Origin: Eubacteriales bacterium
GTDB taxonomy: Bacteria > Bacillota > Clostridia > Oscillospirales > CAG-272
Assembly (NCBI GenBank): GCA_045636085.1
Contig: JAZTWU010000159.1
Span: 1-45,233, forward strand
DNA length: 45,233 nucleotides
Direction: 5' to 3'
In this document: positions 19,711 to 37,696 of the stretch, one piece after another
How positions within the stretch are numbered: position 1 is the first letter of the stretch
Layout: the number at the start of each line of letters is the position of its first letter
The notes under the pieces: generated by a model
Databases searched by the model: none
What the model saw: the letters and a program-made list of their open reading frames with translations, nothing else
Told to the model about the DNA's origin: nothing
Program-made: the position numbers and the translations under genes

Positions 19711-19750
19711 AGTCTTACAAAAATCAAGGCAGAAATCGGGAGGTAATGAA

Positions 19751-21285: not shown

Positions 21286-22188
21286 ATGAAGACTTCGGTT
21301 TTATACGATAACTATTTTTATTCCTCTTACACGCTTCAAATTGAAAATCTTTCCTTGACGGTGACGCTCGACGGCGGCATTTATTCAAGGACCGTGCGCT
21401 CAACGCCTCTGCACAGTCATCCCGTTTTTGAGCTACAAGCGGTTTTGGACGGAGGGCTTGCTCTGAACATTCAGGATGCCGACGAGATCCGCCTTGAAAA
21501 AAATGAGATCTGCCTGCTCCCGCCCGATCTTTATCACGGCGTTACCCCATTAGACGGCACGGTGCGGCTCACGCTTCGCTTCTCCCTTCAGCGCATCGGC
21601 GATGCGGAGGGCGAGGAGGATGTCCACGCGCGCTTTGCAAGGCTTTCGCGCGTTGCCTGCATCAAGGATGCCGAGCAGATCCTGCGCATTCTTGAGCGCA
21701 TCCGCGACGAGGCGCTTTCGCCGATGGCAGTATCCGATGCGCTTTGCCGCGCCTATTTTTCCGAGCTTTTTCTTCTGCTTTACCGCCGCCTCGGCGCGCA
21801 GGACTGCACCGCTCCCAGACTTTCGCTGGAGGAAAGCGACGACGAGAACGCGCGCTACAATAAAATCGAATTTATGATGCAACAGCGAATGGCAGAGCTT
21901 TTCCGCGAGGAGGATCTGGCCGAGGCGCTTGGTCTTTCCGTGCGGCAGACCAGCCGCGTGATGCAAAAGATCTTTGGAATGAGCTTTCGGAAAAAGCTTC
22001 TTGAGCTCAGGCTTCATTTTGCCAAGGGTCTTCTCGTGACCACGGAGGATCCCGTGGACACCATTGCCGCCACCGTGGGCTATACCTCCCCCTCGGGCTT
22101 TCATATCGCCTTCAAAAAGGCCTTTGGGCTCACGCCGAGCGAATACCGAGAGGCAAATATGCGTCCTTCCTTTAATAATGGGACATAA
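21286..22188 (+). CDS. AraC-family transcriptional regulator (cupin sensor + HTH)
   Basis: N-terminal cupin-like features: HSHPVFELQ and LLPPDLYHG. The C-terminus GYTSPSGFHIAFKKAFGLTPSEYR is the AraC HTH_18 signature. Confidence 0.85.
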   Translation: MKTSVLYDNYFYSSYTLQIENLSLTVTLDGGIYSRTVRSTPLHSHPVFELQAVLDGGLALNIQDADEIRLEKNEICLLPPDLYHGVTPLDGTVRLTLRFSLQRIGDAEGEEDVHARFARLSRVACIKDAEQILRILERIRDEALSPMAVSDALCRAYFSELFLLLYRRLGAQDCTAPRLSLEESDDENARYNKIEFMMQQRMAELFREEDLAEALGLSVRQTSRVMQKIFGMSFRKKLLELRLHFAKGLLVTTEDPVDTIAATVGYTSPSGFHIAFKKAFGLTPSEYREANMRPSFNNGT

Positions 22189-22215
22189 TTTCAAAAAAAA
22201 CGGCCGAGTGTTGGG

Positions 22216-22244
22216 TTGCTTTTTTTCGTTTCCTTCGCTATAAT
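22216..22244 (+). promoter_or_regulatory. Putative promoter of the PnuC-like operon
   Basis: It reads TTGCTT (22216-22221), a 17-nt spacer, then TATAAT (22239-22244). A weak hairpin flanked by A8 and T7 lies just upstream (about 22192-22227) and may terminate the AraC transcript. Confidence 0.4.
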
Positions 22245-22259
22245 TAAGGTATAAGATTT

Positions 22260-22970
22260 ATGAGCGAGGATTTTCTTGTGAAAAAAGCATTTACCTTTAT
22301 CGCATCGCGCCGTTTTTTGCTTATTCTGACAGCCATTGGAATGACGGCAACCTATATCGCCTTCCCCTCCCCCTTTTATCTTGTGCTACCGCTTTATATC
22401 TCTCTTTTCGTGAACCTTCTGACCTCAAAGGCCAACCGCTATTGTTTTCTGATCGGCGGACTGAATTCGATCCTTTATGCGATCACCTATATTTCGCTCG
22501 GCATCTATATGTCGGCCTTCTATGCCTTTTTCTTCTCCTTCACCCTGCAGATCTGCACCTTCTTTTCCTGGAAGAAGCGAGGCTATAAAAATTCGACGAC
22601 CTTCCGCAAAATGTCGCCGAGGCTGATCACCCTCATTTCCCTCTCCTTCGTTCTCGTTTACTTCTCCGCCTACTTTGTGATGACGCTTCTCGGCTCCAGC
22701 TTCGTGCTTTTGGATACCTTCACCTCCCTGCTTGGCATTCTCGTTACAATACTGCATCTCTTCTCCTTCCGCGAGGCCGCCTTTGTGCAAACCGTCAGCA
22801 CCCTGATCGGCTTCGCTCTCCAGATCGCCCTCGTGATGGAGGATCCCTCGCGCTGGCCCTTCCTCGTCAGCCACATTCATTCGACGATCTGCGTCTGGAG
22901 AAGCGTTCCCACCATTTGGAAGCTCTATAAGGAGCAGCAGGCACAGAAGCCGACCGAGGCCGCGCTTTGA
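22260..22970 (+). CDS. PnuC-family (nicotinamide-riboside-transporter-like) membrane protein, substrate unknown
   Basis: It is 236 aa with about 7 TMs. The block LTSKANRYCFLIGGLNSILYAITYISLGIYMSAFYAFFFSFTLQICTFFSWKK matches the PnuC pattern (basic-N-x-W/F, G-x-x-x-x-x-Y, Y-G-W-x-x-W-like). Confidence 0.55.
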   Translation: MSEDFLVKKAFTFIASRRFLLILTAIGMTATYIAFPSPFYLVLPLYISLFVNLLTSKANRYCFLIGGLNSILYAITYISLGIYMSAFYAFFFSFTLQICTFFSWKKRGYKNSTTFRKMSPRLITLISLSFVLVYFSAYFVMTLLGSSFVLLDTFTSLLGILVTILHLFSFREAAFVQTVSTLIGFALQIALVMEDPSRWPFLVSHIHSTICVWRSVPTIWKLYKEQQAQKPTEAAL

Positions 22971-22991
22971 TGCTCCGAGAAAGGAAGACCT

Positions 22992-24551
22992 ATGCTGAAT
23001 ATCAAAAATCGCAGAGAATGTTTTTTTGACGATTTTCTGATCGACACCGAGAAAACCACCGCAAAAAGGCTTTTGCATCATCCCGAGAAGCGCGAGCGCG
23101 TGCTTTTGCACGATGCGCCCTGGGAGGGCGACGGATGTATCTATCATCATATCTTTTTTGATCCCCGCTGGCACGGCGTGAAGGGGGATTATCCCAACGG
23201 AACCTACCGCATGTACTATCTTGGCTACCACGGTGGCGAATTCTGCGAATTTTGGACCAAGGATCAGCTCGAGGGCGGCTTTCGCATCTGCTATGCGGAG
23301 AGCGGCGACGGCATTCATTTTGAGAAGCCCGATCTTGGTATCTGCACCTACGGCGGCAGTACGCACAACAACCTGATCCTCGACAAAACCATTCATCCCG
23401 AATCCTGCCAGCTCTATATTTTCTACGACGAAAACCCCGATTGCCCCAAAAGCGAGCGCTACAAGGGCATCACGGCCTGGGATCCTCCGAAGGTGCCCGG
23501 GAAGAAAAACGAGTTTCGCCTTTTCACAATGCTCTCCGAGGACGGCATTCATTTCCGCTTCGGCGAAATGATCACGAACAAGGGATACTTTGACTCGCTC
23601 AATATCATGATGTGGGACGCGGAGGAAAAGCTTTACCGCCTCTACGCGCGCGGCATGCGCATCAAGGGAATGAGCGCGGAGGAAAGCACCAGGCTCGGAT
23701 GGGATACCATCGGCGGCAAAATCACGGATGCCTCCGTGAAGGCGTATCGCGAGGTATTCTATTTTGAATCCCGCGACTACAAGACCTGGAGCGATCCCGT
23801 CTGCCTCTCCTACGAGGACGGCGAAGAATATCATATGTATACCAACGGCATCAGCCGCTACCACCGCGCGCCGCATATCTATATCGGCTTCCCCACGCGC
23901 TACAACGAGCGCACGGAATGGACAAAAAGCTATGACGAGCTTTGCGGCAAGGAAAAGAGATGGCCGCGCTATAAATCCGCAAACCCAAGATCCGGCCTTG
24001 CCGTGACGGACTGCGGCTTTATGACCTCGCGTGACGGACTGCATTTCAACCGCTTCAAGGCCGCATTTATGCGCCCCGGCCCCGAGCATCCAAACGGCTG
24101 GCTCTACGGCGATTGCTATCCCACGCCCATTCCGATGGTTACGAAATCGCAGATCCCGGGAGCGGACGACGAGCTTTCCTTCTATTCTGCGGATGGGCAT
24201 TGCCTCGGCAACCCGGCCGAGCTTTATCGATACGTGATCCGCATGGACGGCTTTGCCTCCCTGCACGCAGAGGAGGAGGAAACGGTTGTGACAAAGCCCT
24301 TTGTCTATGAGGGCGATGCAATGTACGCAAACCTCTCCACCTCGGCCTTCGGCTATCTTTATTTCACGCTTACCTGCGGCGAGGAGCGCGCCGAAAGCTG
24401 CGAGATCTTTGGCGACAGCATTGATAAGCGCATTCATTTTCCCGAGGACGCCCTGCGGCGCTTTTCGGGCAAGGAGGTCGTTTTAAAGATCAAAATGCTT
24501 GATGCCGACCTCTACTCCATCAAATTTGACAAGAAAGGTGCACCCCTATGA
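22992..24551 (+). CDS. Signal-less beta-propeller protein with Asp-box-like repeats; predicted glycoside hydrolase of unknown family
   Basis: S-x-D-G-x-x-F/W motifs recur: ESGDGIHF, LSEDGIHF, ESRDYKTW and TSRDGLHF. The N-terminal pattern FFDDFLID...PWEG...YRMYY is seen in uncharacterised GH-like propellers. The C-terminal VIRMDGFASL suggests a beta-sandwich. Confidence 0.45.
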   Translation: MLNIKNRRECFFDDFLIDTEKTTAKRLLHHPEKRERVLLHDAPWEGDGCIYHHIFFDPRWHGVKGDYPNGTYRMYYLGYHGGEFCEFWTKDQLEGGFRICYAESGDGIHFEKPDLGICTYGGSTHNNLILDKTIHPESCQLYIFYDENPDCPKSERYKGITAWDPPKVPGKKNEFRLFTMLSEDGIHFRFGEMITNKGYFDSLNIMMWDAEEKLYRLYARGMRIKGMSAEESTRLGWDTIGGKITDASVKAYREVFYFESRDYKTWSDPVCLSYEDGEEYHMYTNGISRYHRAPHIYIGFPTRYNERTEWTKSYDELCGKEKRWPRYKSANPRSGLAVTDCGFMTSRDGLHFNRFKAAFMRPGPEHPNGWLYGDCYPTPIPMVTKSQIPGADDELSFYSADGHCLGNPAELYRYVIRMDGFASLHAEEEETVVTKPFVYEGDAMYANLSTSAFGYLYFTLTCGEERAESCEIFGDSIDKRIHFPEDALRRFSGKEVVLKIKMLDADLYSIKFDKKGAPL

Positions 24552-25651
24552 AGATAATTGGAAAAACCGTTCATACCATCCCGCCGACGAAGAACAATCC
24601 AAGAAACGGCGAGGGTGACTTTATCCGCCTGCCCGACGGCAGAATTATGTTTGCTTATTCCGAATATTACAGCGACAATCCACACGACCACGCCCCCTCG
24701 CAGATCACCGCCGTTTTCTCCTCAGACGAGGGCGAAAGCTTTGGCGGCCGCCGCGTTCTGGTTGCTCCGCGAGAGGATGTTGTGAACCGTATGAGCGTTT
24801 CTCTTCTCAAAATGCAAAACGGCGAGATCGGAATGTTTTACGGCGAAAAATATATGAGCGAGGGCGGAAAAATCTATATGCGCCTGATGCTCACGCGCAC
24901 CAAGGACGGCGAAAGCTTCTCCGAGCCGATCAACTGCACCGAGGGCATACAGTACAGCGTTTTTGAAAACGCGCGCGTGATCCGCCTTTCCTCGGGGCGC
25001 ATTCTTATTCCCTCCAACGATCACCCCTACGGCGAGGACGGAAACATTTCCCTTCGCGGCATCACGGAATATTTTTATTCCGATGACGACGGAAAAACCT
25101 TTAAAAAATTTCCCGTCCGCTATGAAAACCCCTGCGCATCCGTCAGCTCCGGGCTTCAGGAAACCGGCGTGATTGAGATCGAAAATGAAAGGATCCTCGC
25201 CTTCTCGCGCACGGATGCATCCTGCCAATTTCTTTCGCTTTCCGAGGACGGCGGCGAAACCTTCACAACCCCCGCGCCCTCCCTTTTCTTCACGGGTGCC
25301 TGCTCGCCGATGCATATGCGCCATCTGCAAAACGGAAAAACTCTCGCCGTCTGGAACCCCGTTCCGCCGACGCCCCTGACCAATGTGCGAAAGAACTTCA
25401 CCCGCACGCCGCTTGCCTGCGCCGTCGTGGACGGCAAGGGAGAAAAATTCCTCGGCAATCTTCTGACCGTGCCGGCAAAAATGTTCCTTCTCGAGGATGA
25501 CCGCAAGGAGGCCTATTGCTACCCCGCCGTTTTTGCCGATAAGGACTATTTCCTCTGCGCCTATTATCACTCCTATGGGACGGGCTTTATCCTTTCCGCC
25601 ACCGTGATCAAAAAGGTGATGCTCTCCGAAATCGAGGACGACGGAGAATAA
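24548..25651 (+). CDS. GH33-like exo-alpha-sialidase, small cytoplasmic type
   Basis: An RIP-like motif is present (DFIRLPDGRI). There are four Asp boxes: SSDEGESF, TKDGESF, SDDDGKTF and SEDGGETF. It is 367 aa with no N-terminal hydrophobic signal. Its ATG overlaps the upstream stop (ATGA). Confidence 0.65.
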   Translation: MKIIGKTVHTIPPTKNNPRNGEGDFIRLPDGRIMFAYSEYYSDNPHDHAPSQITAVFSSDEGESFGGRRVLVAPREDVVNRMSVSLLKMQNGEIGMFYGEKYMSEGGKIYMRLMLTRTKDGESFSEPINCTEGIQYSVFENARVIRLSSGRILIPSNDHPYGEDGNISLRGITEYFYSDDDGKTFKKFPVRYENPCASVSSGLQETGVIEIENERILAFSRTDASCQFLSLSEDGGETFTTPAPSLFFTGACSPMHMRHLQNGKTLAVWNPVPPTPLTNVRKNFTRTPLACAVVDGKGEKFLGNLLTVPAKMFLLEDDRKEAYCYPAVFADKDYFLCAYYHSYGTGFILSATVIKKVMLSEIEDDGE

Positions 25652-25685
25652 TCCCAAAATACGCAATCAAGAAGGAAAAACGAAA

Positions 25686-26645
25686 ATGAGCAATTTGAGC
25701 GGAATCGAAAAGGGGCTTGAGATCGATGCGGCAGGAAAAACCGACAGCGGTCTTCGCACCCCTTATAATAAGGAGCATTTCGAATCCATCGGCGTGACGC
25801 GCGTCTGGGAAAAATACGACGGTATTCTCACCTTCGGAGAGGGACAAACGCTCGCCATCGTGGACGACGGATGCGACCTCACCGTTCCCGAATGGCAAAC
25901 GGTGCATCCTTGGGGCAAAAAGGTGATCGCCTCCTATAATGTTTACGAGGAAAACGACGATCCCTCCCACGTTCCCCCCGGCTATCACGGAACGACCGTT
26001 GGCTACCCCTCCTCGCTTTGCTACCGCGGCCTTTGCGGCATTGCCTACCGCAATCAAACCGCGCAGATCCGATCCTGCACGGTCGTGCACCTGCCGAAGA
26101 TCGAGGGCGAGGATCTCACGCTTACAAAGGCCTTGACCTGGGTTGCCGAGAATGCAAAAAAATACAACATCACCGCCGTCAACCTCTCCGCGCTGGACGA
26201 TAAGCCTCATACTCAGCCCTGCCCCACCGTGCTGGACGAAGCCCTCGCTCGGCTTCGCAAAATGAATATCTGGGTGAGCGCCCCCTGCGGCAACCTTCAG
26301 CACACGGACGGCATTTCCTGGCCCGCCTGCCAGGAGGAATGCTACGCGATCGGCTCGGTGAAGGACGAGGTCGTTTATAACGACAGATACAAAAACACCG
26401 ACCTTTTGGTGCACGCCCATTTCACCTCCTCCTCCAATGCCTATGCCGCCGCATCCTTTATGATATGGCGCGAAGCCGTGGAAAAAGTAAACTTTCCTTG
26501 GCAAAGCTACGGTGAAACGATGCCCGAGGCCGCCTTGGCGATCTTCAAGCTCACGGGCAAGGATTATTTCGACGAGGTGACAAAGCTCTCCTTCAAGGCG
26601 CTGGATCTCGAAAAGGCCATCGACTTCATTATGCAGAAAAACTAA
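25686..26645 (+). CDS. Minimal signal-less subtilase (peptidase S8-like)
   Basis: The Asp motif is LAIVDDGCD, the His motif is GYHGTTVG, the oxyanion Asn context is SAPCGN, and the Ser region is HFTSSSNAYAAASF (non-canonical versus GTSxAxP). At 319 aa its size resembles intracellular subtilisins. Confidence 0.55.
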   Translation: MSNLSGIEKGLEIDAAGKTDSGLRTPYNKEHFESIGVTRVWEKYDGILTFGEGQTLAIVDDGCDLTVPEWQTVHPWGKKVIASYNVYEENDDPSHVPPGYHGTTVGYPSSLCYRGLCGIAYRNQTAQIRSCTVVHLPKIEGEDLTLTKALTWVAENAKKYNITAVNLSALDDKPHTQPCPTVLDEALARLRKMNIWVSAPCGNLQHTDGISWPACQEECYAIGSVKDEVVYNDRYKNTDLLVHAHFTSSSNAYAAASFMIWREAVEKVNFPWQSYGETMPEAALAIFKLTGKDYFDEVTKLSFKALDLEKAIDFIMQKN

Positions 26646-26697
26646 AAAAAAGCGACCGCTTGGTACCGAAAGGGCAATCAAGCGGCCGTTTTTTTGT
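26644..26697. terminator. Bidirectional terminator shared by the two convergent operons
   Basis: The stem GCGACCGCTTG (26652-26662) / CAAGCGGCCG (26679-26688) has one mismatch. It is flanked by A8 upstream and T7 downstream. Confidence 0.7.
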
Positions 26698-26702
26698 TGT
26701 TT

Positions 26703-27896
26703 TTATCTTTCGATCGGCGTCAGCGGATGCGTCCAAACGCCGTATTCGTTTTTATAATAGACCTTGAAGCTGCCGGCATTCTCGGGAATTTTGCGCGTGA
26801 TCACGCCGCTATCCTTTTCCTCCTCGGTCAGCTCCTCGTATTTTGCAAGCGGGCTGGGGCTATGGCCGTTGGAGCGGAAATCCATATAATGGATGCGGCT
26901 TTCGCCGTCGCAGGGATCGGCCTTCACGGTGATATAGCCATCCGAGATCTCATAGCTCGTTTCTGCACCGACAACGCCGAAATAAACGCTCTCATCCGTT
27001 CCCTTTAAGTGAAGCTCGTAATAGCCGCGCGCGGGTGAAAGCGTGATCATCGCGTGGCCATAGACCTTGAAGGTTTGCCAAATCTCGCCGTTTTCGATCA
27101 GCTCCACCTCGCCCTCCCCCTCAAGGAAGGTGGAAAGCAAAACGCTCTCACCAAGACGGTAGTTCGAATAATTTCCGTTGTCCACCGCGATTTTCGGCGG
27201 ATTTTCCGGCGGCTTATAATCCTTAACAAGCGCATCCACACGCATATCGAGGGGCAGAACGCTCTCGATGCGATCGTAGCGATCCAGATGGAAGAGCGCG
27301 TATTTTTCGAAAAACTCCATCGGGGTGAAGCTTCTTCTTGCGCAGGTGGGGCGGATCGCCTCCGATACCTCAATGAAGAGAACGGCGCCGCTCTCATCCT
27401 TCACGATATCCGTGATAAGCGCCACGTGGTTTCTTCCCTCGCCAAAGGCATAGAGAACGTCCAGAAGGCGGATATCCTCGGCCTTATAGCATCCGTGATC
27501 CGCAATGCGGCGCATTCCGGGTATGGTTTCCCATTTCGCGGTGCTCACGCGGTAAGGAATGCCGAGTGCATAGCGCACAAGGCCGTTGCAAACGATACCG
27601 AAATTGCAGGCATAATACTGCGCCTGTCCGGGCTGATACAGCTTGCTATCGGGATTATCGATGGCCGAAAGAAAGCTCTCGATCGAAACGTTTTCCGTGA
27701 TAAAGGAATCCGTTTTTTCCGTGGAGGCATAAGGGAAGCCCTTCAGGGGCTTGCCTGCGGGAAGACAGCAGCTTCCCTTATCGCGCATATAGGTCGGAAG
27801 CTCTCGCACGGGCGTGAAGACGAGCTCGGTCAGCTGAAGGCTTCTTTCGAGAACGGCCGCCTCGGCCTCCGTTTTCGGCTCGGTATGAATCAGCAT
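26703..27896 (-). CDS. Hypothetical cytoplasmic protein; possible papain-fold (NlpC/P60-like) Cys-His hydrolase N-domain plus beta-rich C-domain
   Basis: It has a good RBS (aaaggag) and codon usage like its neighbours. FGIVCNGLVRYALG, followed about 53 residues later by GRNHVALITDI, resembles the Cys...His spacing of NlpC/P60. I did not recognise the family with confidence. Confidence 0.55.
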   Translation of the reverse strand: MLIHTEPKTEAEAAVLERSLQLTELVFTPVRELPTYMRDKGSCCLPAGKPLKGFPYASTEKTDSFITENVSIESFLSAIDNPDSKLYQPGQAQYYACNFGIVCNGLVRYALGIPYRVSTAKWETIPGMRRIADHGCYKAEDIRLLDVLYAFGEGRNHVALITDIVKDESGAVLFIEVSEAIRPTCARRSFTPMEFFEKYALFHLDRYDRIESVLPLDMRVDALVKDYKPPENPPKIAVDNGNYSNYRLGESVLLSTFLEGEGEVELIENGEIWQTFKVYGHAMITLSPARGYYELHLKGTDESVYFGVVGAETSYEISDGYITVKADPCDGESRIHYMDFRSNGHSPSPLAKYEELTEEEKDSGVITRKIPENAGSFKVYYKNEYGVWTHPLTPIER

Positions 27897-27928
27897 ATGG
27901 ACTCCTTTTAGAAAAAAGCTTTGTTTTT

Positions 27929-28687
27929 TTACAGATATTCGATCTCGTTGCGGATCGCGCCGAGCTCGTCGGGCTTCTCCTCAAAGACCTTATTCTTATC
28001 CTCAAGCTTCAAAAACTCCTCGTAATAGCGAAGTCCGAATTCGCGAAGGGCAGGAGCGGAAAAATGAAGATTATCGGGATTGGAAAGCAGTCCCTCGGCC
28101 GAGGCAAATCCGATCATTTTATCCTTTTTGGGAAGATTTTGCAAAGTATCATTTACAATCTTGATATAAGGTGCGCGCTCCAGCGGATAAAAATTATAAG
28201 TAAAGTCTCCAAGTCCGCCAACAATAAAGGGAACGTCATAGAGATTCAAGCGGCGGCGAAGCGCACCGAAAATTTTCATCACCTTTTCTTCATAAAAGGG
28301 TGCTCTCTGCTCGCTGGTATCGCTCTCGCCCTGATGCCAGAGCACGGCAACAATCGTGGAGGTGCGGCTTGCAAGCTCCGCCATATAGCAGGCGTGGTCA
28401 AAAAGCAGACCGCCAACCGCCCATTGATCAAGGCAAGTGCCGCCGTCCGCGCAGGGAATGATACCAACGTCAACGCCCTTTTCATCGTGATAGCGTTTCG
28501 CGAAGCTTTCCGCAAGATTGACGCCCGATGTTCTACGATCGGGATTGACGGGGCAATACATCGGGATCCAGCGCCCGTTGCGCAAAACCTTCAGCGCCTC
28601 ATCCGGATTCGGAATAGGCTCCACCTCACCGGCAAAGCCGCGCCCCCCCATATTGGATTGGCCAATGATCAAAACGGAATGGATCAT
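27929..28687 (-). CDS. Sialate O-acetylesterase-like SGNH hydrolase (SASA/DUF303 family)
   Basis: VLIIGQSNMGGRG contains the catalytic Ser in GQSNM. Also present are LWHQGESD and a C-terminal DNLH (Asp-x-x-His). There is no signal peptide. Confidence 0.8.
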   Translation of the reverse strand: MIHSVLIIGQSNMGGRGFAGEVEPIPNPDEALKVLRNGRWIPMYCPVNPDRRTSGVNLAESFAKRYHDEKGVDVGIIPCADGGTCLDQWAVGGLLFDHACYMAELASRTSTIVAVLWHQGESDTSEQRAPFYEEKVMKIFGALRRRLNLYDVPFIVGGLGDFTYNFYPLERAPYIKIVNDTLQNLPKKDKMIGFASAEGLLSNPDNLHFSAPALREFGLRYYEEFLKLEDKNKVFEEKPDELGAIRNEIEYL

Positions 28688-28709
28688 ATTTTTTCTCCTT
28701 TTTTGGATT

Positions 28710-30104
28710 TTAAAGATCTTTTTTCAGTCTTCCCTTTTTATATTTTGCAAAAAGATAAACGGTGATCGGAATATAAACGACATCCAGAAGGATATAAGAG
28801 ATCGGATAGCAAAGATAGATCGAGGAAAGCTCGTGCGGCAAAATTCCGCCGTAATAGAAGAACTGCATCCATACGGTACGGAAGCCGAGCACGCCGAGAA
28901 GGTTGACGACCATCTGCAGTATCGGATACCCGAAGGCCTGAATCGTTGCAGCCAAGGGCGTGCAGTAAAGGAAGAAGAAAAACGCAAGATAGAAGGTGGA
29001 AATCGTTCCGCAATAAATGGCCTCGGCATTCGTTCCGACGAAGGGATAAAGGAAGGCCTCGACGAAGACCGTCATCAGAACGCCAAGCGAGAAGGAGAGC
29101 ACGAAAAGCATCAGCGCACAGTACCAGAAGCTCTTTCGCACGCGATCGGGCTTGCCCGCGCCGATATTCTGGCCGATAAAGGTCTGCGCGGCCACGTGAT
29201 AGGCGGAATTGATCGCAAGAATGATCATCTGAAGCTGGGCGGCGGCACTCTCACCCGCCATCGTATCCGCGCCGTATTCGTTCAGCGCCGCATAGATCAG
29301 AATATTCGAAACCGAGAAAAGCGCCGTGCAAAGGCCGCTCGGAAGACCGTAGCGCAGGATCTTGAAAAAGCATTGCCAATTCATACGAAGATCGGAAAGC
29401 GTGATGCGGCAGGGCCCGTCCATACGGAAGAGGCGAAAAAGAAGCATCGCGGCGCCAACCACCTGCGCAAGCACCGTTGCCAGCGCGACGGCAAGGATCT
29501 TCGAGGGGAGCGCAAGGCAGAACACGAGGTTCAAAACCACGTTGAGACCGCCCGAAAGGAGCATATAGTACATCGGGCGCTTGCTGTCTCCCGTGGCGCG
29601 CAGAATGGCCGCGCAGTAGTTGTAAAGGAGAAGCACGGGCATTCCCGCCATATTCACGATAGCATAAAGCCAAGCCTCGTCATAGCATTCGTCGGGGCAA
29701 TGCATCATCGTGAGGAAGGTTGCCATCAGCGAAATGCTGAAAACCGCGATCACAACGCCGATCAGAAGCGCGGCAAGCACGGAGGCGCTCACCGTTTTCT
29801 TTGCCTTATCCTCTTCCTTCGCTCCGAGATAGCGAGCAAGAAGGATGCTCGTTCCCACCGAAATACCGATGGAAAGATTTTTAAAGAAATTTAAAAGAGG
29901 GTTGGTGCATCCGATGGAGGCAACCTCCGTGCCCGTTACGGAAAAGAAATTCACCATCGCCATATCCACCGCGTTGAAGAGCGTTTGCATCACGTTGGAG
30001 AGGATGATTGGAATCACGAAGATCAGAATGGAGGAAAAAATCGGCCCCTCCGTGATCGGATCCTTATAAACTGCCTTCTTTTTCAAGGCTTTTACTTCGG
30101 TCAT
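28710..30104 (-). CDS. MATE-family transporter, paralogue 5 (most diverged)
   Basis: It has 12-TM-like hydrophobicity. Blocks shared with its four neighbours: GPIFSS..F.IPI, CPDEC, GDSKRP, IQAFGYP and RTVWMQF. Confidence 0.85.
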   Translation of the reverse strand: MTEVKALKKKAVYKDPITEGPIFSSILIFVIPIILSNVMQTLFNAVDMAMVNFFSVTGTEVASIGCTNPLLNFFKNLSIGISVGTSILLARYLGAKEEDKAKKTVSASVLAALLIGVVIAVFSISLMATFLTMMHCPDECYDEAWLYAIVNMAGMPVLLLYNYCAAILRATGDSKRPMYYMLLSGGLNVVLNLVFCLALPSKILAVALATVLAQVVGAAMLLFRLFRMDGPCRITLSDLRMNWQCFFKILRYGLPSGLCTALFSVSNILIYAALNEYGADTMAGESAAAQLQMIILAINSAYHVAAQTFIGQNIGAGKPDRVRKSFWYCALMLFVLSFSLGVLMTVFVEAFLYPFVGTNAEAIYCGTISTFYLAFFFFLYCTPLAATIQAFGYPILQMVVNLLGVLGFRTVWMQFFYYGGILPHELSSIYLCYPISYILLDVVYIPITVYLFAKYKKGRLKKDL

Positions 30105-30127
30105 CTTAAAGCTTCCTTATCTTTGTT

Positions 30128-31498
30128 TTAGATCTTTTCGTTGAGTTTTCCCTTGGCGTAGCGGTAAAAGAGCACGACCGCGATCGGAATATAGATTAAG
30201 GCGATAACGCTGTACGAAATGGGATAGCAGAGGAAGAGATTCAGAGGCGTGGGCGCGATCAGCTTTCCGTAAACAAACTGCATCCACACCGTGCGAAGCC
30301 CCAGCGTGATCGCAAGGTTCACGGCCGTTTGCAGCTGCGGAAATCCGAATGCCTGAATGGCGGCGCCAAGCGGCGTTTGCACGATGAAATACGCCATCAG
30401 CACCACGCGCATACGAAGCAGAGCCGTCTCCAGCGCAACGCCGCTTCCCGCACCGAAGAGTGCCGCGAATTGCTTGCCGAATAAAAGCACGATGCAGCTT
30501 CCCCCGAAGGTTACGAGAAACTGCACAAAAAGCATATAATAGAACGCGCGATACACACGCGGCTTCTTGCCGGCGCCGATATTCTGCCCCATAAAGGTGA
30601 GCGCCGTGGCGGAAAAGGAGGAGCCTGCATTGGCAACGATATTTTCATACTGCATACAGGCAACGCTTCCCGTGAGGAAATCCGCACCGAAGCCATTCAT
30701 TGCCGTTTGCACCTGAAGGTTGCTCAAGGGATACACCATATTCGTGATTGCCGTGGGAAGACCATACCAGAGCATTTTCTTAAAGGATGCAAAATCGAAA
30801 ATGATTTTCCTTATATTCCAACGGCAAGCCCCCTCCGATTTTGAAAGCCGACGGAGCGAAAGATAGGCGCCCAGCACCTGAGAAAGCATCGTTGCCAATG
30901 CAACGGCGGCAACCTTCTGCGTAAAGAGCAGGCAGAAGATAAAATTCAATACGAGGTTGGCCGAGCCGGAGATGACCATATAGCGAAGCGGGCTTTGGCT
31001 ATCTCCCGAAACGCGGATCACGGCGGCCGCATAATAATAGATAAGAATAAACGGCATTCCGAGAAAATACAGTCTCGAATACAAGGCCGCCTGCGAAAAG
31101 CATTCCTCGGGGCAGTCCGTGAGCAGAAGAAAGGGCTCTGCGGCCGCAAGGCCGATGATCGCAATCAGAGAGCCGAGCAGGGCACCCGTGAGGATCGCCG
31201 TGGAAACCACCTTGCGCACGCGCTCGCGGTCTCCCTCTCCGAGCAGGCGCGCGAGAATGATATTGACGCCGACGCAAAGCCCAACGCTGAACTGCGAAAA
31301 AAGCCCGTTGACGGACGAGGTTGCGCCAACGGCGGCAACCGCCGTTCCCGCATCAAACCAGGAAAGCACCATAAGATCCACCGCGTGGAACATCGTGCTG
31401 ATCAGATTGGCGACAAGAAGCGGGATGGCAAAGCGGATCATCGTGGAAAAGAGGGGGCCGCCCGTCAGATCCAGATCCTTTCTTTTTGCTAAAAGCAT
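30128..31498 (-). CDS. MATE-family transporter, paralogue 4
   Basis: Shared blocks present: CPEEC, GDSQSP, IQAFGFP and RTVWMQF. I moved the start from the track's TTG 31525 to ATG 31498 (MLLAKRKDLDLTGGPLF, RBS aaggaag), which aligns with the N-termini of the paralogues. Confidence 0.85.
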   Translation of the reverse strand: MLLAKRKDLDLTGGPLFSTMIRFAIPLLVANLISTMFHAVDLMVLSWFDAGTAVAAVGATSSVNGLFSQFSVGLCVGVNIILARLLGEGDRERVRKVVSTAILTGALLGSLIAIIGLAAAEPFLLLTDCPEECFSQAALYSRLYFLGMPFILIYYYAAAVIRVSGDSQSPLRYMVISGSANLVLNFIFCLLFTQKVAAVALATMLSQVLGAYLSLRRLSKSEGACRWNIRKIIFDFASFKKMLWYGLPTAITNMVYPLSNLQVQTAMNGFGADFLTGSVACMQYENIVANAGSSFSATALTFMGQNIGAGKKPRVYRAFYYMLFVQFLVTFGGSCIVLLFGKQFAALFGAGSGVALETALLRMRVVLMAYFIVQTPLGAAIQAFGFPQLQTAVNLAITLGLRTVWMQFVYGKLIAPTPLNLFLCYPISYSVIALIYIPIAVVLFYRYAKGKLNEKI

Positions 31499-31585
31499 AG
31501 CTACACTTCCTTTTGGAAAAATCAAAAAATGAACGTCCGACGGCCGCCCTGAAGGAAAGCCGAAAAGCAGAGAGCGAAGAAGAAA

Positions 31586-32977
31586 TCAGATCTTATAGCG
31601 GATCTTATCCCTTTTCAGCCTCACGAAAAGCACGACAATGATCGGCACATAAAGAACAAAATTCACAAGATAAGAGAGCGGATAGCAAAAATAGAGCGTA
31701 TCCAGCGTTGCTCTATAAGGATAAACGAACTGCATCCAGAGCGTTCGCAGGCCAACGACCGTGGCCACATTGATCGCGGTTTGCAGTGTTGGACGCCCGA
31801 AGGCCTGAATCGTGGAAGCCATGGGATTATGCGAAATGATATAGAAGAGTGCCACATACTTCATACGCACCGCGCCCTGCGCGATCGAGTCGGGATCTCC
31901 CGCAACGAAAATGGAAAGCAGGGGCTCGCGGAAAATATAGAAGCTCACGGCAAGCGATGCCGTTACGGCGACCGAAAGAGCCCAGCTATACCAGAAGGCG
32001 CGGTACACTCTTTCCTTTTTCCTTGCACCGAGGTTCTGGCCGATCACGGTCAATGCAGCGGTGGTCACAGCGCCGCCCGCCGTACCAACGATGGTTTCGT
32101 ATTGGATCGCGGCGGTATTGCCCGCAATGGCGGCCGTGCCGTGCAAGTTGATCGCGGACTGGATCTGCACATTGGTGATCGGATAAAGCGCGGTGGTCAA
32201 GGCTGTCGGCAGTCCGTAAAGAATGATCTTTTTAAAGGCGCTGAAATCAAAGCACTTCCCTTTGATATCAAAGCGGCAGATGCCTTCCGAAACGAGCAGG
32301 CGGCGCAGAGCCAGGAATGCGCCGAGCGCCTGCGAGATCAGCGTTGCCAGCGCAACGGCAACGACCTTTCTCGGCAAAACAATGCAGAAAACGGTGTTCA
32401 GCACCACGTTGCAGGTGCCCGATATGAGCATATAGAAAAGCGGACGCTCGCTATCGCCCGAAACGCGCAGGATCGTGGAGCCGTACTGATTTAAAAGCAA
32501 AAATGGCGCGCCGATAAAATAAATGGCGGCATAAAGCGTAGCATCCGCGAGGCATTCCTCGGGGCAATTCATAAAGACGAGCACGGTGCGCCCAAGCGTC
32601 GTTCCGAGAAGGGCAAGGACAAGTCCCATGCCAAAGGCGGTATAGATCGCCGTTGCAATCACAAGACGGGAATTTCTCTCATCCCCCTGCCCGATCAGAC
32701 GGGCGAGCACAATGCTCACGCCGCCGCAAAGGCCAATGGCAAACTGCGTGAAAAGCGAAATGATACTGCTCGTTGCGCCAACGGAGGCGATCTCGTTTCC
32801 AATGGCAAACCAGGAGAGCACCATCATATCCGCGGCGGAAAACAGCGTGGTTACAATATTGGCAAGAACGATCGGCAGCGAAAACAGAACGATCGTTTTA
32901 AAAAGCGGTCCGCTCGTTAAATCCAGATCCGTGCGGCGGGAAAAAATACTGCGCCGCTTCACGCTTTGTGTGTTCAT
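31586..32977 (-). CDS. MATE-family transporter, paralogue 3
   Basis: Shared blocks present: CPEEC (32552-32566), GDSERP, IQAFGRP and RTLWMQF. Confidence 0.85.
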   Translation of the reverse strand: MNTQSVKRRSIFSRRTDLDLTSGPLFKTIVLFSLPIVLANIVTTLFSAADMMVLSWFAIGNEIASVGATSSIISLFTQFAIGLCGGVSIVLARLIGQGDERNSRLVIATAIYTAFGMGLVLALLGTTLGRTVLVFMNCPEECLADATLYAAIYFIGAPFLLLNQYGSTILRVSGDSERPLFYMLISGTCNVVLNTVFCIVLPRKVVAVALATLISQALGAFLALRRLLVSEGICRFDIKGKCFDFSAFKKIILYGLPTALTTALYPITNVQIQSAINLHGTAAIAGNTAAIQYETIVGTAGGAVTTAALTVIGQNLGARKKERVYRAFWYSWALSVAVTASLAVSFYIFREPLLSIFVAGDPDSIAQGAVRMKYVALFYIISHNPMASTIQAFGRPTLQTAINVATVVGLRTLWMQFVYPYRATLDTLYFCYPLSYLVNFVLYVPIIVVLFVRLKRDKIRYKI

Positions 32978-33009
32978 ATGGTTCCTCTTTTATCCTGTGC
33001 GGAATTTCT

Positions 33010-34380
33010 TCAGATATTTTTCTTATATACGCCCTTGCGATAGCGCAGAAGCACCAGAGCCGCCAGTCCTCCCGTCACAACTTGCACCGCGGTGAAGGAA
33101 ATAGGATAGCAAAGATAGAGATTTTCAATCGTGTCAGGCAGAATTTTTCCGTATATAAACTGCATCCATACCGTGCGGAAGCCGAAAATACCGATCAGGT
33201 TGATCGTGGTTTGTATTCCGGGGTATCCGAAGGCCTGCAGGGTGGTGCCGAATATAGTCATCGCGAAGGGATAGAAAAGCAGAACGTATTGCATGCGGAT
33301 CATTCCTTGATTGACGGCCTCGGCATCCGCGCCCGTGAAGATCGGCAAAAGCTGACGGCCGAAGATAAAGAAGGTCAACGAAAGCACGATCGCTATCGTG
33401 CTCTCCATTGCTTGCGCATAGAAGAAGGAGCGATACACGCGTTTCGGCTTTTTTGCGCCGATATTCTGCCCAAGGAAGGTCATCGCCGTGGAGGTCAGAG
33501 CCGCGCAGGCATTGTTAACGATGCTTTCATACTGGGCGGAGGCCGTGTTTCCCGCAATGGCGGCCGTGCCGTGCAAGTTGATCGCGGACTGGATCTGCAG
33601 GTTTGCGATCGGATACAGCATGCTCGTCAGGGCCGCGGGGAAGCCGTACTGTATCATTTTCCCGAAGGTTCTGAAATCGAAGCGGATTTTTTTGGTGTCC
33701 CAATGCGCAATTCCGTCCACCGTGGCAAGACGGCGCAGGCAAAGGCAGGCGCTAAGCGCATTGGAGATCAGGGTTGCGATCGCAACCGCAAGCACCTTAT
33801 AGGGTAAAATGATACAGAAAAGGATATTGAGCACGAGGTTGGTAAATCCGCCGATGATCATATAGTAAAGCGGATGCTTGCTGTCTCCCGAAACGCGAAT
33901 GGCCGATGCTGCATAGTTATAGACGAGATAAGCGGGCATTCCGATAATATAGATGATGGCATAGAGCCTTGCATCCGCATAGCAATCCGCGGGACAATTC
34001 GTCCAAGCCAGGAAGGACGGAACCAAAAGCGCGCCGATCGCGGCAAGCACAATGCCAAGGAAAACACCCGTGAGAATCGAGGTGGAAAGCACGGTTTGCG
34101 CGCGATCCTTTTCCTTGCTTCCGAAGCATCTTGCAAGAATGATATTCGCGCCCGCACCGAGGCCGACGGCCGAATTTAAAAAGAGCGAGGTGAGCGCAGA
34201 GGTCGCGCCAACGGCGGCCACCTCCGTGCCAACGGCAAAGCGCGCCAAAACTCCCATATCCACCGCATGATAAAGAGCGAAGAAAAGATTGGATAGGATC
34301 AGAGGGATCGTGAAGGAAACCATCGAGGAGAAAAGCGGCCCCTCCGTTATATTCAGGTGTTTCTTGCTTGCAAGGAGCAT
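33010..34380 (-). CDS. MATE-family transporter, paralogue 2
   Basis: Shared blocks present: CPADC, GDSKHP, LQAFGYP and RTVWMQF. Confidence 0.85.
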   Translation of the reverse strand: MLLASKKHLNITEGPLFSSMVSFTIPLILSNLFFALYHAVDMGVLARFAVGTEVAAVGATSALTSLFLNSAVGLGAGANIILARCFGSKEKDRAQTVLSTSILTGVFLGIVLAAIGALLVPSFLAWTNCPADCYADARLYAIIYIIGMPAYLVYNYAASAIRVSGDSKHPLYYMIIGGFTNLVLNILFCIILPYKVLAVAIATLISNALSACLCLRRLATVDGIAHWDTKKIRFDFRTFGKMIQYGFPAALTSMLYPIANLQIQSAINLHGTAAIAGNTASAQYESIVNNACAALTSTAMTFLGQNIGAKKPKRVYRSFFYAQAMESTIAIVLSLTFFIFGRQLLPIFTGADAEAVNQGMIRMQYVLLFYPFAMTIFGTTLQAFGYPGIQTTINLIGIFGFRTVWMQFIYGKILPDTIENLYLCYPISFTAVQVVTGGLAALVLLRYRKGVYKKNI

Positions 34381-34429
34381 ACGAAGATACCCTTCCTTTC
34401 GTAGAAAGTCATAACCGATTACCGAAAAA

Positions 34430-35842
34430 TCAAACCTTTTCCTTATATTTTCCCTTGCGATAGCGAAGAAGGAGCACCAGCACGCAGACAGCGTAGCAGG
34501 CGGTCGTGAATATGTAGGAAACGGGGAAGCTCATAAAGACCGCGGCAGGCGTTTGCGGAACAAGTTTTCCGTAAACGAACTGCATCCAGAGCGTGCGAAC
34601 GCCAAGAATGCCCGCAATATTGATCGCAGTCTGCAGCGTCGGATACCCGAAGGCCTGAATCGTCGGTCCAAGGGGCGTATGCAGAATTGCATAGGAAAAA
34701 AGCATAATGCTCATGCGGAGCATACCCGCCTCGATTGCCGCGGCATTGTTGCCCGCAAAGATCGGAATTAGCGATTCGCCGAAGGAATAAATGACCGTTG
34801 CCGTGCCAAGCACGAGGATGAATTCCAAAATCAAAACGCTGAAGAAGGTGCGATATACGCGCTTTGGCTTTTTCGCGCCGAGGTTTTGTCCCATCATCGT
34901 CAGAGCCGTGGCGGCAAGACCGACATTATAGGAGCCGAGCATTTTTTCATATTGCTGGCTCGCCGTGCTTCCCGCAACGAAATCCGCACCGTAGGAATTG
35001 ATGCCGGATGCGATCTGCATATTGGCGATCGGATAGAGGCAGGAGGTGATCGCCGTGGGAAGTCCGTAGAGAATCATCGTTTTGAAGGAATCAAAATCAA
35101 AGCAGGTCTGCTTGACATCCCAGTAGCAGGCCTTGCTTGCCAATGCTTGCGCCTCTCCGGCCTTGCGCTTTTTCGCGGAAGCGGCAAGATGGCGAAGCGC
35201 AAGAAAGGCCGCAAGTCCCTTGGAAAGCGCCGTTGCCAACGCAACCGCCATCACCTTCTGCGGAAGGATCGCACAAAACACCGTGTTCAACGAAAGATTG
35301 CAAACGCCTGCGATCAGCATATAGTAAAGCGGGCGCTGGCTGTCTCCGCCGACGCGGATGATCGCCGCCGCATAATGATAAAGCAGAAGGAGCGGCATTC
35401 CGAGGAAATAGAAGGTCGCATAAAGCGTTGCATCGTCAATGCATTCGGGGGGGCAATCCGTCAAAACCAGGAAGGGGCGGGAGATAAAGCCGCCGATCAG
35501 AGCGATCACAAGGCCGAGGCCAACGCTCGTGAGGATCGCCGTGGAAATCACCTTCTGTGCGCGGGCGTGGTTCCCTTCTCCGAGCAAGCGCGCCAAAACG
35601 ATATTGACGCCGACGCAAAGTCCCGTTGCAAGATTTTCGAGAAGGTGCGTGAGCGAGGAGGTTGTGCCAACGGAAGCGACCTCGTAGCCGTGCGCAAACC
35701 AGGAAAGCACCATCAGATCCATCGCATCAAACATCATCGAAACGAAATTTGCCAAAATCAGGGGCATAGCAAACAAAACGATGGTTTTAAAAATCGGGCC
35801 GTTCGTCAGGTCCAGATCCGTTCGCCTCGAAAGCAGCTTCAT
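34430..35842 (-). CDS. MATE-family transporter, paralogue 1 (promoter-proximal; has a Lys/Ala-rich insertion in the central loop)
   Basis: Shared blocks present: CPPEC, GDSQRP, IQAFGYP and RTLWMQF. It carries the extra segment ASAKKRKAGEAQALASKA between the two 6-TM halves. Confidence 0.85.
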   Translation of the reverse strand: MKLLSRRTDLDLTNGPIFKTIVLFAMPLILANFVSMMFDAMDLMVLSWFAHGYEVASVGTTSSLTHLLENLATGLCVGVNIVLARLLGEGNHARAQKVISTAILTSVGLGLVIALIGGFISRPFLVLTDCPPECIDDATLYATFYFLGMPLLLLYHYAAAIIRVGGDSQRPLYYMLIAGVCNLSLNTVFCAILPQKVMAVALATALSKGLAAFLALRHLAASAKKRKAGEAQALASKACYWDVKQTCFDFDSFKTMILYGLPTAITSCLYPIANMQIASGINSYGADFVAGSTASQQYEKMLGSYNVGLAATALTMMGQNLGAKKPKRVYRTFFSVLILEFILVLGTATVIYSFGESLIPIFAGNNAAAIEAGMLRMSIMLFSYAILHTPLGPTIQAFGYPTLQTAINIAGILGVRTLWMQFVYGKLVPQTPAAVFMSFPVSYIFTTACYAVCVLVLLLRYRKGKYKEKV

Positions 35843-35881
35843 TTTTCTTCATCCTCGCTCTAAAATACTTTATCATATTTT

Positions 35882-35909
35882 ATTTTAGCACAACTTTCAA
35901 AAATGTCAA
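35882..35909 (-). promoter_or_regulatory. Strong sigma-70 promoter for the MATE array operon
   Basis: The minus strand reads TTGACA (35909-35904), a 16-nt spacer, then TGcTAAAAT (the -10 is at 35887-35882). A short leader with RBS gaggat follows. Confidence 0.55.
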
Positions 35910-35962
35910 TTGACTTTTTTCATAACTTTTCGCCCGACTTCGTCTTTTTTTAGGGAATTAAT

Positions 35963-35992
35963 CACAAAATAAAACCTGCGCGCCCCCGCGCA
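35963..35992 (-). terminator. Orphan terminator-like GC hairpin upstream of the MATE promoter
   Basis: The minus strand reads UGCGCG-GGGG-CGCGCA (35992-35977) followed by GGUUUUAUUUUG. No minus-strand gene lies upstream of it. Confidence 0.35.
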
Positions 35993-36047
35993 CGGAGCAA
36001 AGAGACGGCAAAGGTGCGCGCGCTACGGTTTTTTTTGCAAAAACATC

Positions 36048-36076
36048 TTGCATTCCCTTGTTTTTTTTAGTATAAT
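36048..36076 (+). promoter_or_regulatory. Sigma-70 promoter for the HD / HAD / NaPi unit
   Basis: It reads TTGCAT (36048-36053), a 17-nt spacer containing T8, then TATAAT (36071-36076). Confidence 0.6.
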
Positions 36077-36134
36077 AGGTATGATGGGAAAAAATGGCTT
36101 ATTTTTTCAAAAAAATAAAAAACGGAGGTCGCAT

Positions 36135-36794: not shown

Positions 36795-36844
36795 CAACTA
36801 TTGTTTCCAAAACATACATTTTATTCTTTAAAAAAGGAGAAAAT

Positions 36845-37642: not shown

Positions 37643-37696
37643 TTCCCTCCTCTGCTTTCTCCACCTAAATACATATATTGAAAGGAAACGAAAACT

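Follow-up and report, generated by a model that had tools for sequence, protein, structure and literature searches.

A conserved operon linking a Pnu-family membrane protein with predicted cytoplasmic glycosidases, next to a MATE gene array, in a bacterium of the Oscillospirales

When examining a 45,233-nt stretch of DNA from an Eubacteriales bacterium (Oscillospirales, CAG-272; contig JAZTWU010000159.1 of assembly GCA_045636085.1, hereinafter the window), we found that a gene for a small membrane protein of the Pnu family is embedded in a tightly packed, evolutionarily conserved operon together with genes for two propeller proteins, one of which has the sialidase fold. This operon, unit A (21286–26645, + strand), encodes an AraC-family regulator, the PnuC-like protein, a 519-aa protein (P519), a 367-aa single-domain protein of the GH33 type (GH33L) and a divergent subtilase-like protein of 319 aa (S8L). 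It converges with unit B (26703–35909, − strand), which encodes a 397-aa protein (U397), an esterase and five MATE proteins. Unit A is an undescribed, conserved Pnu-linked operon of predicted cytoplasmic glycosidases, with a transporter family that is unprecedented for such operons, and the link to PnuC is the robust and unusual part of the locus. The explanation that we favour, with a confidence that only modestly exceeds an even chance, is that the two are independent neighbouring transcription units, unit A serving the uptake and hydrolysis of a glycoside and unit B comprising a separate MATE array.

In mechanistic terms, unit A would be an AraC-controlled catabolic operon in which the Pnu-family facilitator would allow a small (ulosonic-acid) glycoside to diffuse into the cell, where its hydrolysis would act as the metabolic trap, as kinases do for the Pnu proteins that carry vitamins. 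GH33L, with its arginine triad, aspartate and Glu/Tyr pair, would remove a 2-keto-3-deoxy (ulosonic) acid sugar, and P519, a member of a large propeller-plus-β-sandwich family, would be the second hydrolase; S8L in this genome, and additional BNR_2 paralogs and a GH20 protein in its relatives, would be variable accessories. Unit B would be a separately promoted MATE efflux array with a CE6-type acetylesterase and a Cys/His protein, its location beside unit A being due solely to a variable block of about 17 kb that some lineages have at this position.

Conservation of unit A and variability of unit B

Unit A was found in every related genome that was recovered. The gene order AraC, PnuC-like, P519 and BNR_2 (the Pfam family to which GH33L belongs) is shared by ten loci from close relatives, with 66–91% identity in P519 (L001/L002, L003, L004, L008, L009, L016, L088 and L173/L174; L002 is cut after P519). 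The fullest version, AraC–PnuC–P519–BNR_2–BNR_2–S8L–GH20, is present in L173/L174; L016 contains this set without AraC and PnuC calls, and L009 has the same genes in another order. In L088 (11254-13492), P519 has been lost, and the stretch from the PnuC-like gene to BNR_2 comprises only a 47-aa open reading frame (ORF) and about 230 nt. Given the synteny in ten loci, the tight packing of the genes, with the GH33L start overlapping the P519 stop by 4 nt, and a conserved promoter block of its own, we consider unit A to be a conserved functional unit. An earlier note on this DNA, prepared from the sequence alone, had described 12 ORFs in two convergent units; their order and coordinates were correct, and the gaps of 21, −4 and 34 nt on the plus strand were reproduced, whereas the range of 22–87 nt given for the minus strand is 22–60 nt for the ORFs as listed, and 87 nt is reached only if the second MATE gene starts at the ATG at 31498 instead of the TTG at 31525.

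The regulator gene (21286..22188, +) encodes a cupin-type ligand domain and an HTH_18 domain (Pfam HTH_18, 1.1e-22; AraC_binding, 5.8e-5). It is followed by a promoter-like site of the PnuC-like operon (22216..22244, +), with the −35 element TTGCTT at 22216–22221, a 17-nt spacer and the −10 element TATAAT at 22239–22244. This block is kept in all eight relatives aligned, and a hairpin formed by an A-tract and a T-tract (22190–22228), directly upstream of the promoter, is kept in the relatives as well. The −10 element is perfect and the −35 element weak, which would be compatible with dependence on an activator. A methyltransferase-like gene for a 526-aa protein (MTS, N6_Mtase, Eco57I; 19682-21262, +) ends 23 nt before the AraC gene and is kept in all relatives; this gene and a Metallophos gene are 82–91% identical among the relatives, compared with 48–80% for the AraC, PnuC and P519 genes. 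Since the flanks are thus more similar than the operon, unit A either evolves faster than its flanks or was exchanged.

Unit B has a near-consensus σ70-type promoter (35882..35909, −; TTGACA, 16 nt, TG-n-TAAAAT), which reads TTGACA-16-TGcTAAAAT from 35909 to 35882, matches 11 of the 12 consensus positions, possesses the TG of an extended −10 element and is kept in L003, L008 and L088. The two units have in common a bidirectional intrinsic terminator (26646..26695), in which a G+C-rich stem (26652–26688) is flanked by A8 on one side and U7 on the other; the hairpin has a folding energy of −25.2 kcal/mol (z −3.82), and one of 200 shuffled sequences folds equally well. Both signals had been pointed out in the earlier note and withstood the analysis. 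A conserved operator-like motif common to the two promoter regions was not detected among the eight and four orthologous regions aligned, and an AraC operator acting at both promoters was rejected, the aligned regions having only A-rich tracts in common. The absence of a common motif neither proves nor excludes co-regulation, although it suggests separate control.

The five tandem MATE genes (28710–30104, 30128–31525, 31586–32977, 33010–34380 and 34430–35842, all −) encode proteins that belong to the MATE family, with two MatE repeats in each (E 4e-41 to 5e-32). Against the TIGR00797 model, they score 111–153 bits, and the first gene alone passes the cut-off of 147.4; the paralogs are 39–52% identical to one another. 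In the relatives, the copy number varies from three to five, with orthologs of MATE1, MATE3 and MATE5. In L088, the MATE array is interrupted by a gene whose product is a PutP proline symporter (TIGR02121, 527 bits); as an SSS transporter, this product was considered as a candidate SiaT-type carrier and rejected, given that it scores above the PutP equivalog cut-off.

The esterase gene (27929..28687, −) encodes a predicted cytoplasmic protein with a GQSN motif at residues 9–12, a SASA domain (146 bits, 1.4e-42) and 83–88% identity to its counterparts in relatives. Its best relative in the PDB is 1zmb, an 'acetylxylan esterase related enzyme' of the CE6 type (6.4e-56), whereas sialate O-acetylesterases match it only with E values of 0.056–0.47, so it does not group with the sialate esterases. 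The earlier note had taken it for a SASA-type sialate esterase, and of this description the SASA domain stands. As the protein is CE6-like, we rejected it as a sign of sialic acid, and the link of the locus to sialic acid through this enzyme is weakened.

U397 (26703..27896, −), also predicted to be cytoplasmic, has no match in Pfam (E ≤ 5), NCBIfam or the PDB, and a profile of its family has none in the PDB at E ≤ 1; the NlpC_P60 relationship that the earlier note had proposed to check by profile was not recovered in these searches. The 347 homologs are all unnamed. An invariant Cys103…His157 pair has NlpC/P60-like spacing, although the protein is not recognized as a member of that family, and one homolog shows a weak E-set match; U397 may be a thiol hydrolase whose C-terminal region is Ig-like. 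Homologs with 51–56% identity have variable neighbors, being next to a SASA gene once and never next to a MATE gene. A search for partners in six genomic contexts yielded none that was consistent, with one divergent SASA gene and two associations with metallo-β-lactamases: a fusion of U397 to a metallo-β-lactamase-fold domain (L006:10001-12076) and a position beside a Lactamase_B gene (L090:8619-9410). The metallo-β-lactamase fold is the only recurring partner seen for the U397 family.

In L004, L016 and L173/L174, unit A is directly followed by the gene for ApbE, the ortholog of which lies at 43597–44631 in the window (69% identity); hence the region 26703-43500 of the window appears to be one variable indel block. 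The block of about 17 kb (26.7–43.5 kb) includes the genes for U397, the esterase and the five MATE proteins along with those for HD and HAD proteins, an Na/Pi cotransporter, a radical-SAM activase and a glycyl-radical enzyme. In L173/L174, the closest relative with 91% identity in P519, unit B is missing at the unit A site. U397 or SASA genes occur in none of the approximately 73 other loci with P519, and in a few of these there are weak MATE matches of 22–33% identity, in addition to one match of 37–63% that lies on a short L009 contig; none of 42 metagenomic loci with PnuC-like genes contains a U397, SASA or MATE gene. We regard unit B as separable from unit A on the grounds that it is absent at the site in these relatives and from the distant loci, has its own promoter and varies in its MATE and putP content. 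The synteny in relatives on which the earlier note had staked its proposal is therefore found for unit A in ten loci, and is broken for unit B in L004, L016 and L173/L174.

That proposal was that the two convergent units constitute one system that processes an imported acylated glycoside, glycopeptide or nonulosonic-acid conjugate: the PnuC-like protein would import the compound, the esterase, U397, S8L and the two propellers would dismantle it, and the MATE proteins would export or exchange the substrate, a product or a toxic aglycone. We consider this unlikely, even though the units are convergent upon one terminator in the window, L001, L003, L008, L009 and L088, SGNH/GDSL esterases occur within the PnuC–P519 operons of L030, a glucuronoyl-esterase-like gene adjoins a GH33L homolog in L092 and L093, and all the enzymes are predicted to be cytoplasmic (a hydrophobic N-terminus is absent from all five soluble proteins, in agreement with the intracellular location assumed in the note). 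A single system is hard to reconcile with the lack of unit B at the site in the closest relative and two others, with its movement in a 17-kb block that carries unrelated housekeeping-type genes, and with the absence of U397 and SASA from all distant PnuC-like and P519 loci, in which MATE matches are few and weak. The insertion of putP into the MATE array of L088, promoters without a common operator motif and the variable contexts of the U397 family argue in the same direction. In accord with the note, literature searches yielded no characterized system of such composition. The combination of a sialidase with five exporters is probably not one system, and the MATE pumps most likely form a separate module.

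Hydrolases of unit A and their possible substrate

GH33L (24548..25651, +; BNR_2, 2.3e-17) is, judging by its sequence and structural model, a true enzyme of the sialidase fold whose catalytic residues are all in place. It contains three strict Asp-boxes at 58, 178 and 232, and its AlphaFold2 (AF2) model (pLDDT 94) is a six-bladed propeller for which Foldseek retrieves many GH33 structures (TM ~0.7, E 1e-13 to 1e-15), which places it in the GH33 (clan GH-E) fold; the nearest structural neighbor is 5hx0, a protein without a characterized function, and identity to characterized sialidases is 12–16%. The approximately 560 homologs are all single-domain proteins of about 360 aa with the pipeline name 'exo-alpha-sialidase'. 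Among 54 homologs with 37–82% identity, R19, D47, E205, R221, R286 and Y325 are invariant and fit the complete GH33 catalytic set, namely the arginine triad, the acid/base aspartate and the nucleophilic tyrosine with its partner glutamate, the roles of the tyrosine and the aspartate being assigned from order, spacing and position in the model rather than by superposition. The N-terminal motif is P-R-N-G-E in place of R-I-P, and the arginine of the RIP motif is present as R19.

The GH33L family profile matches sialidases in the PDB, the best being the GH181 enzyme of Akkermansia (6e-20), and E205, R221 and R286 align with E218, R234 and R305 of AmGH181, which lie in the catalytic site of the published structure (PMC10067855). 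In GH181, glutamine replaces both the nucleophilic tyrosine and the third arginine; because GH33L retains a conserved tyrosine and all three arginines, it is predicted to be of the retaining GH33 type. From this catalytic set, a substrate with an anomeric carboxylate, that is, a 2-keto-3-deoxy sugar, is predicted; the sugar could be N-acetylneuraminic acid (Neu5Ac), ketodeoxynonulosonic acid (KDN), 3-deoxy-D-manno-oct-2-ulosonic acid (Kdo) or 3-deoxy-D-lyxo-hept-2-ulosaric acid (Dha). It could come from host sialoglycans, in line with the GH20 genes of relatives and the gut sources, or from plant acidic glycans such as the Kdo/Dha side chains of rhamnogalacturonan II (RG-II), in line with the GH28/β-helix and rhamnosidase neighbors and the herbivore-gut origin of many contigs. 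The GH28/β-helix genes beside relatives of the PnuC-like gene, together with the rhamnosidase genes beside relatives of P519, point to plant acidic glycans. GH33-type enzymes presumably cleave Kdo in pectin RG-II as well, inasmuch as we take the C-terminal Kdo-hydrolase domain of BT1013 to belong to GH33. The utilization of RG-II includes a Kdo hydrolase, at the C-terminus of BT1013 (PMC13501991). In L092/L093 (8905-11083), a GCE_fung (CE15 glucuronoyl-esterase-like) gene immediately precedes a GH33L homolog with 42% identity, a further case in which an esterase accompanies an acidic-sugar enzyme of this family.

Ordinary scavenging of sialic acid, with GH33L as a NanH-like cytoplasmic Neu5Ac sialidase that acts on imported sialyl-oligosaccharides and with nanA, nanK and nanE located elsewhere in the genome, would be a substrate-specific sub-case of the explanation favoured here, and we regard it as quite improbable. 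The catalytic residues and fold of the GH33 type fit it, as do the NanH structures of Clostridium perfringens among the Foldseek matches (TM 0.62–0.65), the GH20 hexosaminidase-like gene that completes the operon in L009, L016 and L173/L174 and would suit host-type N-acetylhexosamine glycans, and the human and animal gut samples among the sources. However, Pfam scans of large ORFs over the 45 kb revealed no NanA, NanK, NanE, TRAP, SSS or sugar-ABC importer, so that, among the ORFs scanned, the locus lacks the makeup of a canonical nan cluster, as the earlier note had said, and includes no transporter of a type known for sialic acid. The low identity to characterized sialidases, the replacement of RIP by R-N-G-E, the presumed activity of GH33-type enzymes on Kdo and the GH28/β-helix and rhamnosidase genes beside relatives weigh against scavenging as well.

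P519 (22992..24551, +) produced no match in Pfam or NCBIfam, even at E ≤ 5, or to sequence models of the PDB. The earlier note had described it as an Asp-box propeller, a reading that did not survive, in contrast to the GH33-like label it had given to GH33L: there is no BNR, BNR_2 or GH33 match, strict Asp-boxes are absent, with only four shorter SxDGxxF/W-like motifs, and the comparison of the P519 and GH33L family profiles gives an hhalign probability of 0.6%, that is, the families are unrelated. The AF2 model (pLDDT 90.6) consists of a β-propeller and a C-terminal β-sandwich. Its Foldseek neighbors, namely the N-acetylgalactosamine deacetylase 6n1b and members of GH32, GH137, GH130, GH159 and GH93, are weak matches (target TM ≤0.65, 8–13% identity), and the GH32/GH130/GH137-type neighbors, along with the hhalign value and the lack of HMM matches, led us to reject a relationship to sialidases or BNR proteins. 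The best match of the family profile in the PDB, a GH130 phosphorylase, has an E value of only 0.016, and no function was assigned from solved relatives. More than 1,500 homologs, all unnamed, are spread over Clostridia, Paenibacillus, Lentisphaerae, Kiritimatiellae, Planctomycetota, Acidobacteriota, Poribacteria and other groups, often in multiple copies per genome. Their neighbors, in 66 loci, are carbohydrate-related but heterogeneous (Amidohydro_2 in six, AraC in six, solute-binding protein (SBP) in five and PnuC in three, in addition to rhamnosidase, fucosidase, NAGLU and GH123). P519 probably represents an undescribed family of glycoside hydrolases. Amidohydro_2 (PF04909) genes recur beside both P519 and GH33L homologs (L019/L020:11462-12232; L091:12260-13228; six P519 loci), which hints at a common downstream step, e.g., a sugar-acid lactonase or decarboxylase.

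S8L (25686..26645, +) had been called a minimal S8 subtilase. The motif pattern stands, with VDDG (60), HGTT (101), CGN (203) and TSSS (247–250) invariant in four orthologs and the putative D60/H101/N203/S248–250 residues in place, whereas the scores against Peptidase_S8 are 16.1 and 18.2 bits (cut-off 21.8), the match to the mycosin model (E 3.4e-5) is under the curated cut-off, and the single sequence matches PDB subtilases at E ~0.02; a four-sequence profile retrieved no subtilases from the PDB, only noise. S8L is encoded in the window, L009, L016 and L173/L174, and not in L001, L003, L004, L008 and L088; by this distribution, it is apparently a lineage-specific accessory gene of unit A.

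The PnuC-like transporter and its neighborhoods

The PnuC-like protein (ORF 22260..22970, +) is a member of the NMN_transporter family (PF04973; 6.6e-13, 49.4 bits, cut-off 27.3) and contains at least five strongly hydrophobic segments; it falls below the cut-off of the PnuC equivalog TIGR01528 (30.2 bits vs. 42.45). In view of the alignment of orthologs and the conserved promoter, its true start is probably the GTG at 22278, with the ribosome-binding site GAGGA at 22266–22270. Like the AraC, GH33-like and five MATE assignments, the PnuC-like label of the earlier note was matched by profile HMMs. Pnu transporters function by facilitated diffusion and cytoplasmic trapping (PMC5749112), and the translational packing of the Pnu gene with those of cytoplasmic hydrolases would fit trapping by hydrolysis.

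All close relatives have the AraC and PnuC-like genes side by side, as do 9–11 of the 38–42 distant PnuC-like loci examined, and PnuC-like genes lie beside P519 homologs even at 30–44% identity (L019, L020, L022, L027 and L030). The PnuC-like and P519 pair recurs in other Clostridia and in metagenomic loci, sometimes with a GH33-like gene, as in L027, which also has a GH33L homolog. A reciprocal scan of metagenome contigs with the PnuC-like alignment produced 42 loci of at least 4 kb, with P519 in 10, GH33L in 6, AraC in 11 and an SBP-like lipoprotein in 8. In a Pfam census of the two neighbors on either side of the PnuC-like genes, AraC was found 9 times, BNR_2 8 times, β-helix/GH28 4–5 times and GFO/IDH/MocA oxidoreductases 4 times, and there were also GH123, GH31 and α/β-hydrolases; the 25 commonest neighbor families include neither NadR nor a vitamin kinase. 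A riboswitch upstream of the PnuC-like gene was not detected, the only Rfam match in the window being a thiamine pyrophosphate (TPP) element before the ThiT gene. With no riboswitch and with AraC, BNR_2, P519 and GH28 as neighbors, the context is not that of NAD salvage. In the literature searched, no sugar or glycoside substrate is described for the Pnu family, and the searches returned no system in which PnuC is paired with glycoside hydrolases, sialidase, CAZymes or pectin.

Next to some PnuC-like genes, there are genes for lipoproteins of about 480 aa (signal peptide and cysteine), with no ABC permease genes nearby (L027:3912-9827; L030:3981-5435 and 10638-12098; also L094, L103, L104, L124, L125, L154 and L168). 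Their similarity to solute-binding proteins is weak (SBP_bac_1, E 0.014; family profile against 6ffl, E 0.002), and the pairing may represent a binding-protein-associated Pnu transporter. A broader idea, that this Pnu clade was recruited as an importer of small acidic glycosides, with hydrolysis by the GH33-type protein and P519 as the trap and, in some organisms, the SBP-like lipoprotein as a partner, we put forward tentatively, as a possibility that is rather less than even.

Several observations weigh against the explanation by two independent units with uptake and hydrolysis of a glycoside as the function of unit A. The units are convergent, with a common terminator, in six of nine related genomes, so a functional tie is conceivable, and the SGNH/GDSL esterases within the PnuC–P519 operons of L030 suggest deacetylation in the pathway, in which the CE6 esterase could have a role. 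The Pnu protein could be an exporter or a carrier of a non-sugar ligand; about half of the PnuC-like loci lack any marker neighbor, although many of those contigs are short, and most P519 homologs lack an adjoining PnuC-like gene. Furthermore, the assignment of Y325 as the nucleophile of GH33L rests on invariance and position in the model, with Y323 and Y339 conserved too, and the window lacks genes for the further catabolism of any ulosonic acid.

That the PnuC-like protein is a vitamin transporter (for nicotinamide riboside or thiamine) that came to lie next to these genes by chance is very unlikely: for all its membership in Pfam NMN_transporter and the ThiT gene with a TPP riboswitch and thiamine pyrophosphokinase gene 6–8 kb upstream, many unrelated contigs have its gene next to P519, BNR_2 and AraC at identities as low as 30–40%, its score does not reach the PnuC equivalog cut-off, no riboswitch, kinase or NadR gene lies beside it, and the thiamine genes, which run in the opposite direction, are separated from it by five genes and served by their own riboswitch. 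A link between the PnuC-like gene and these thiamine genes was rejected, the sole riboswitch being the one before ThiT and the genes lying on the other strand. The riboswitch (70.9 bits; 14543-14641, −) precedes the ThiT (Thia_YuaJ) gene, and, given this position, the true start of the ThiT ORF (listed as 13676–14611) is probably downstream of its first start codon; the thiamine pyrophosphokinase gene is at 15414–16049.

Two ORFs at the beginning of the window, of 280 aa (463-1305, +) and 988 aa (1390-4356, −), are without a Pfam match and adjoin an ABC-2-type transporter with two ABC_transp_aux (GldG-like) proteins (4372–9330). Long antisense ORFs in phase with genes (22425-24437, −; 24722-25666, −; 25608-26681, −; 28518-29894, +; 34886-35863, +; 37247-39601, −), including one of 670 aa opposite P519, were rejected as genes; these appear to be shadow ORFs that owe their length to the avoidance of TTA, CTA and TCA, which account for 23 of 4,708 codons (0.5%) in the 12 genes of the two units.

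If glycoside import by unit A is borne out, the substrate range of the Pnu family would extend from vitamins to carbohydrates, and hydrolysis, not only phosphorylation, could drive uptake through a facilitator; should the SBP-like lipoprotein prove to be a partner, it would be the first Pnu transporter associated with a binding protein. The locus also provides a genomic handle on the P519 family (>1,500 members) and the cytoplasmic single-domain GH33-like family (~560 members) of gut and environmental polysaccharide degraders.

Comparison with known systems

One comparison is with the Pnu vitamin facilitators, namely PnuC for nicotinamide riboside, PnuT for thiamine and PnuX/RibM for riboflavin, with their trapping kinases. 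These are small polytopic proteins of the same Pfam family and are likewise encoded beside cytoplasmic enzymes that alter the imported compound, in keeping with facilitated diffusion and metabolic trapping (PMC5749112). By contrast, the PnuC-like protein scores below the equivalog cut-off, its neighbors are glycosidase-fold and AraC genes instead of kinases, NadR and riboswitches, and an SBP-like lipoprotein gene lies beside some of its relatives. GH33L resembles the small cytoplasmic GH33 enzymes, C. perfringens NanH and human Neu2, in consisting of one six-bladed propeller of approximately 360–380 residues without a signal peptide, with Asp-boxes, the Arg/Asp/Glu/Tyr positions and Foldseek TM values of 0.62–0.68, yet it shares only 12–16% identity with them, has R-N-G-E for RIP, is closest in structure to 5hx0 and has no nan genes nearby; from the Akkermansia GH181 enzyme, its nearest relative by profile, it differs in keeping the conserved tyrosine and the three arginines.

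The nan clusters (NanA/K/E, a SiaT, TRAP, SAT or NanT transporter and NanS-type esterases) likewise have a sialidase-fold enzyme in the same neighborhood as a transporter and an esterase of the SASA family, whereas here the lyase, kinase and epimerase were not found among the window ORFs scanned, the transporter is of another family, and the esterase is CE6-like and lies in a separable block. The tandem MATE efflux genes of other systems encode the same twelve-transmembrane-class MatE proteins with two repeats each; unit B differs in that its five paralogs (39–52% identity) are accompanied by an acetylesterase and a Cys/His protein, and in that only one of the five reaches the TIGR00797 cut-off. 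Another parallel is offered by the RG-II enzymes of Bacteroides thetaiotaomicron (BT1013, the GH143 DHA hydrolase and the GH137 protein BT0996), which likewise include ulosonic-acid and propeller-type glycosidases and act on small acidic side chains (PMC13501991). The GH137 β-L-arabinofuranosidase BT0996 is among the structural matches of P519, albeit a weak one (target TM ~0.55), and GH28/β-helix and rhamnosidase genes lie beside relatives of the locus, as in the RG-II setting. The GH20 genes of relatives have no place in the RG-II setting, however, and, unlike those periplasmic or surface enzymes, which are encoded in a Sus-type polysaccharide utilization locus, the enzymes described here are predicted to be cytoplasmic and are linked to a Pnu protein.

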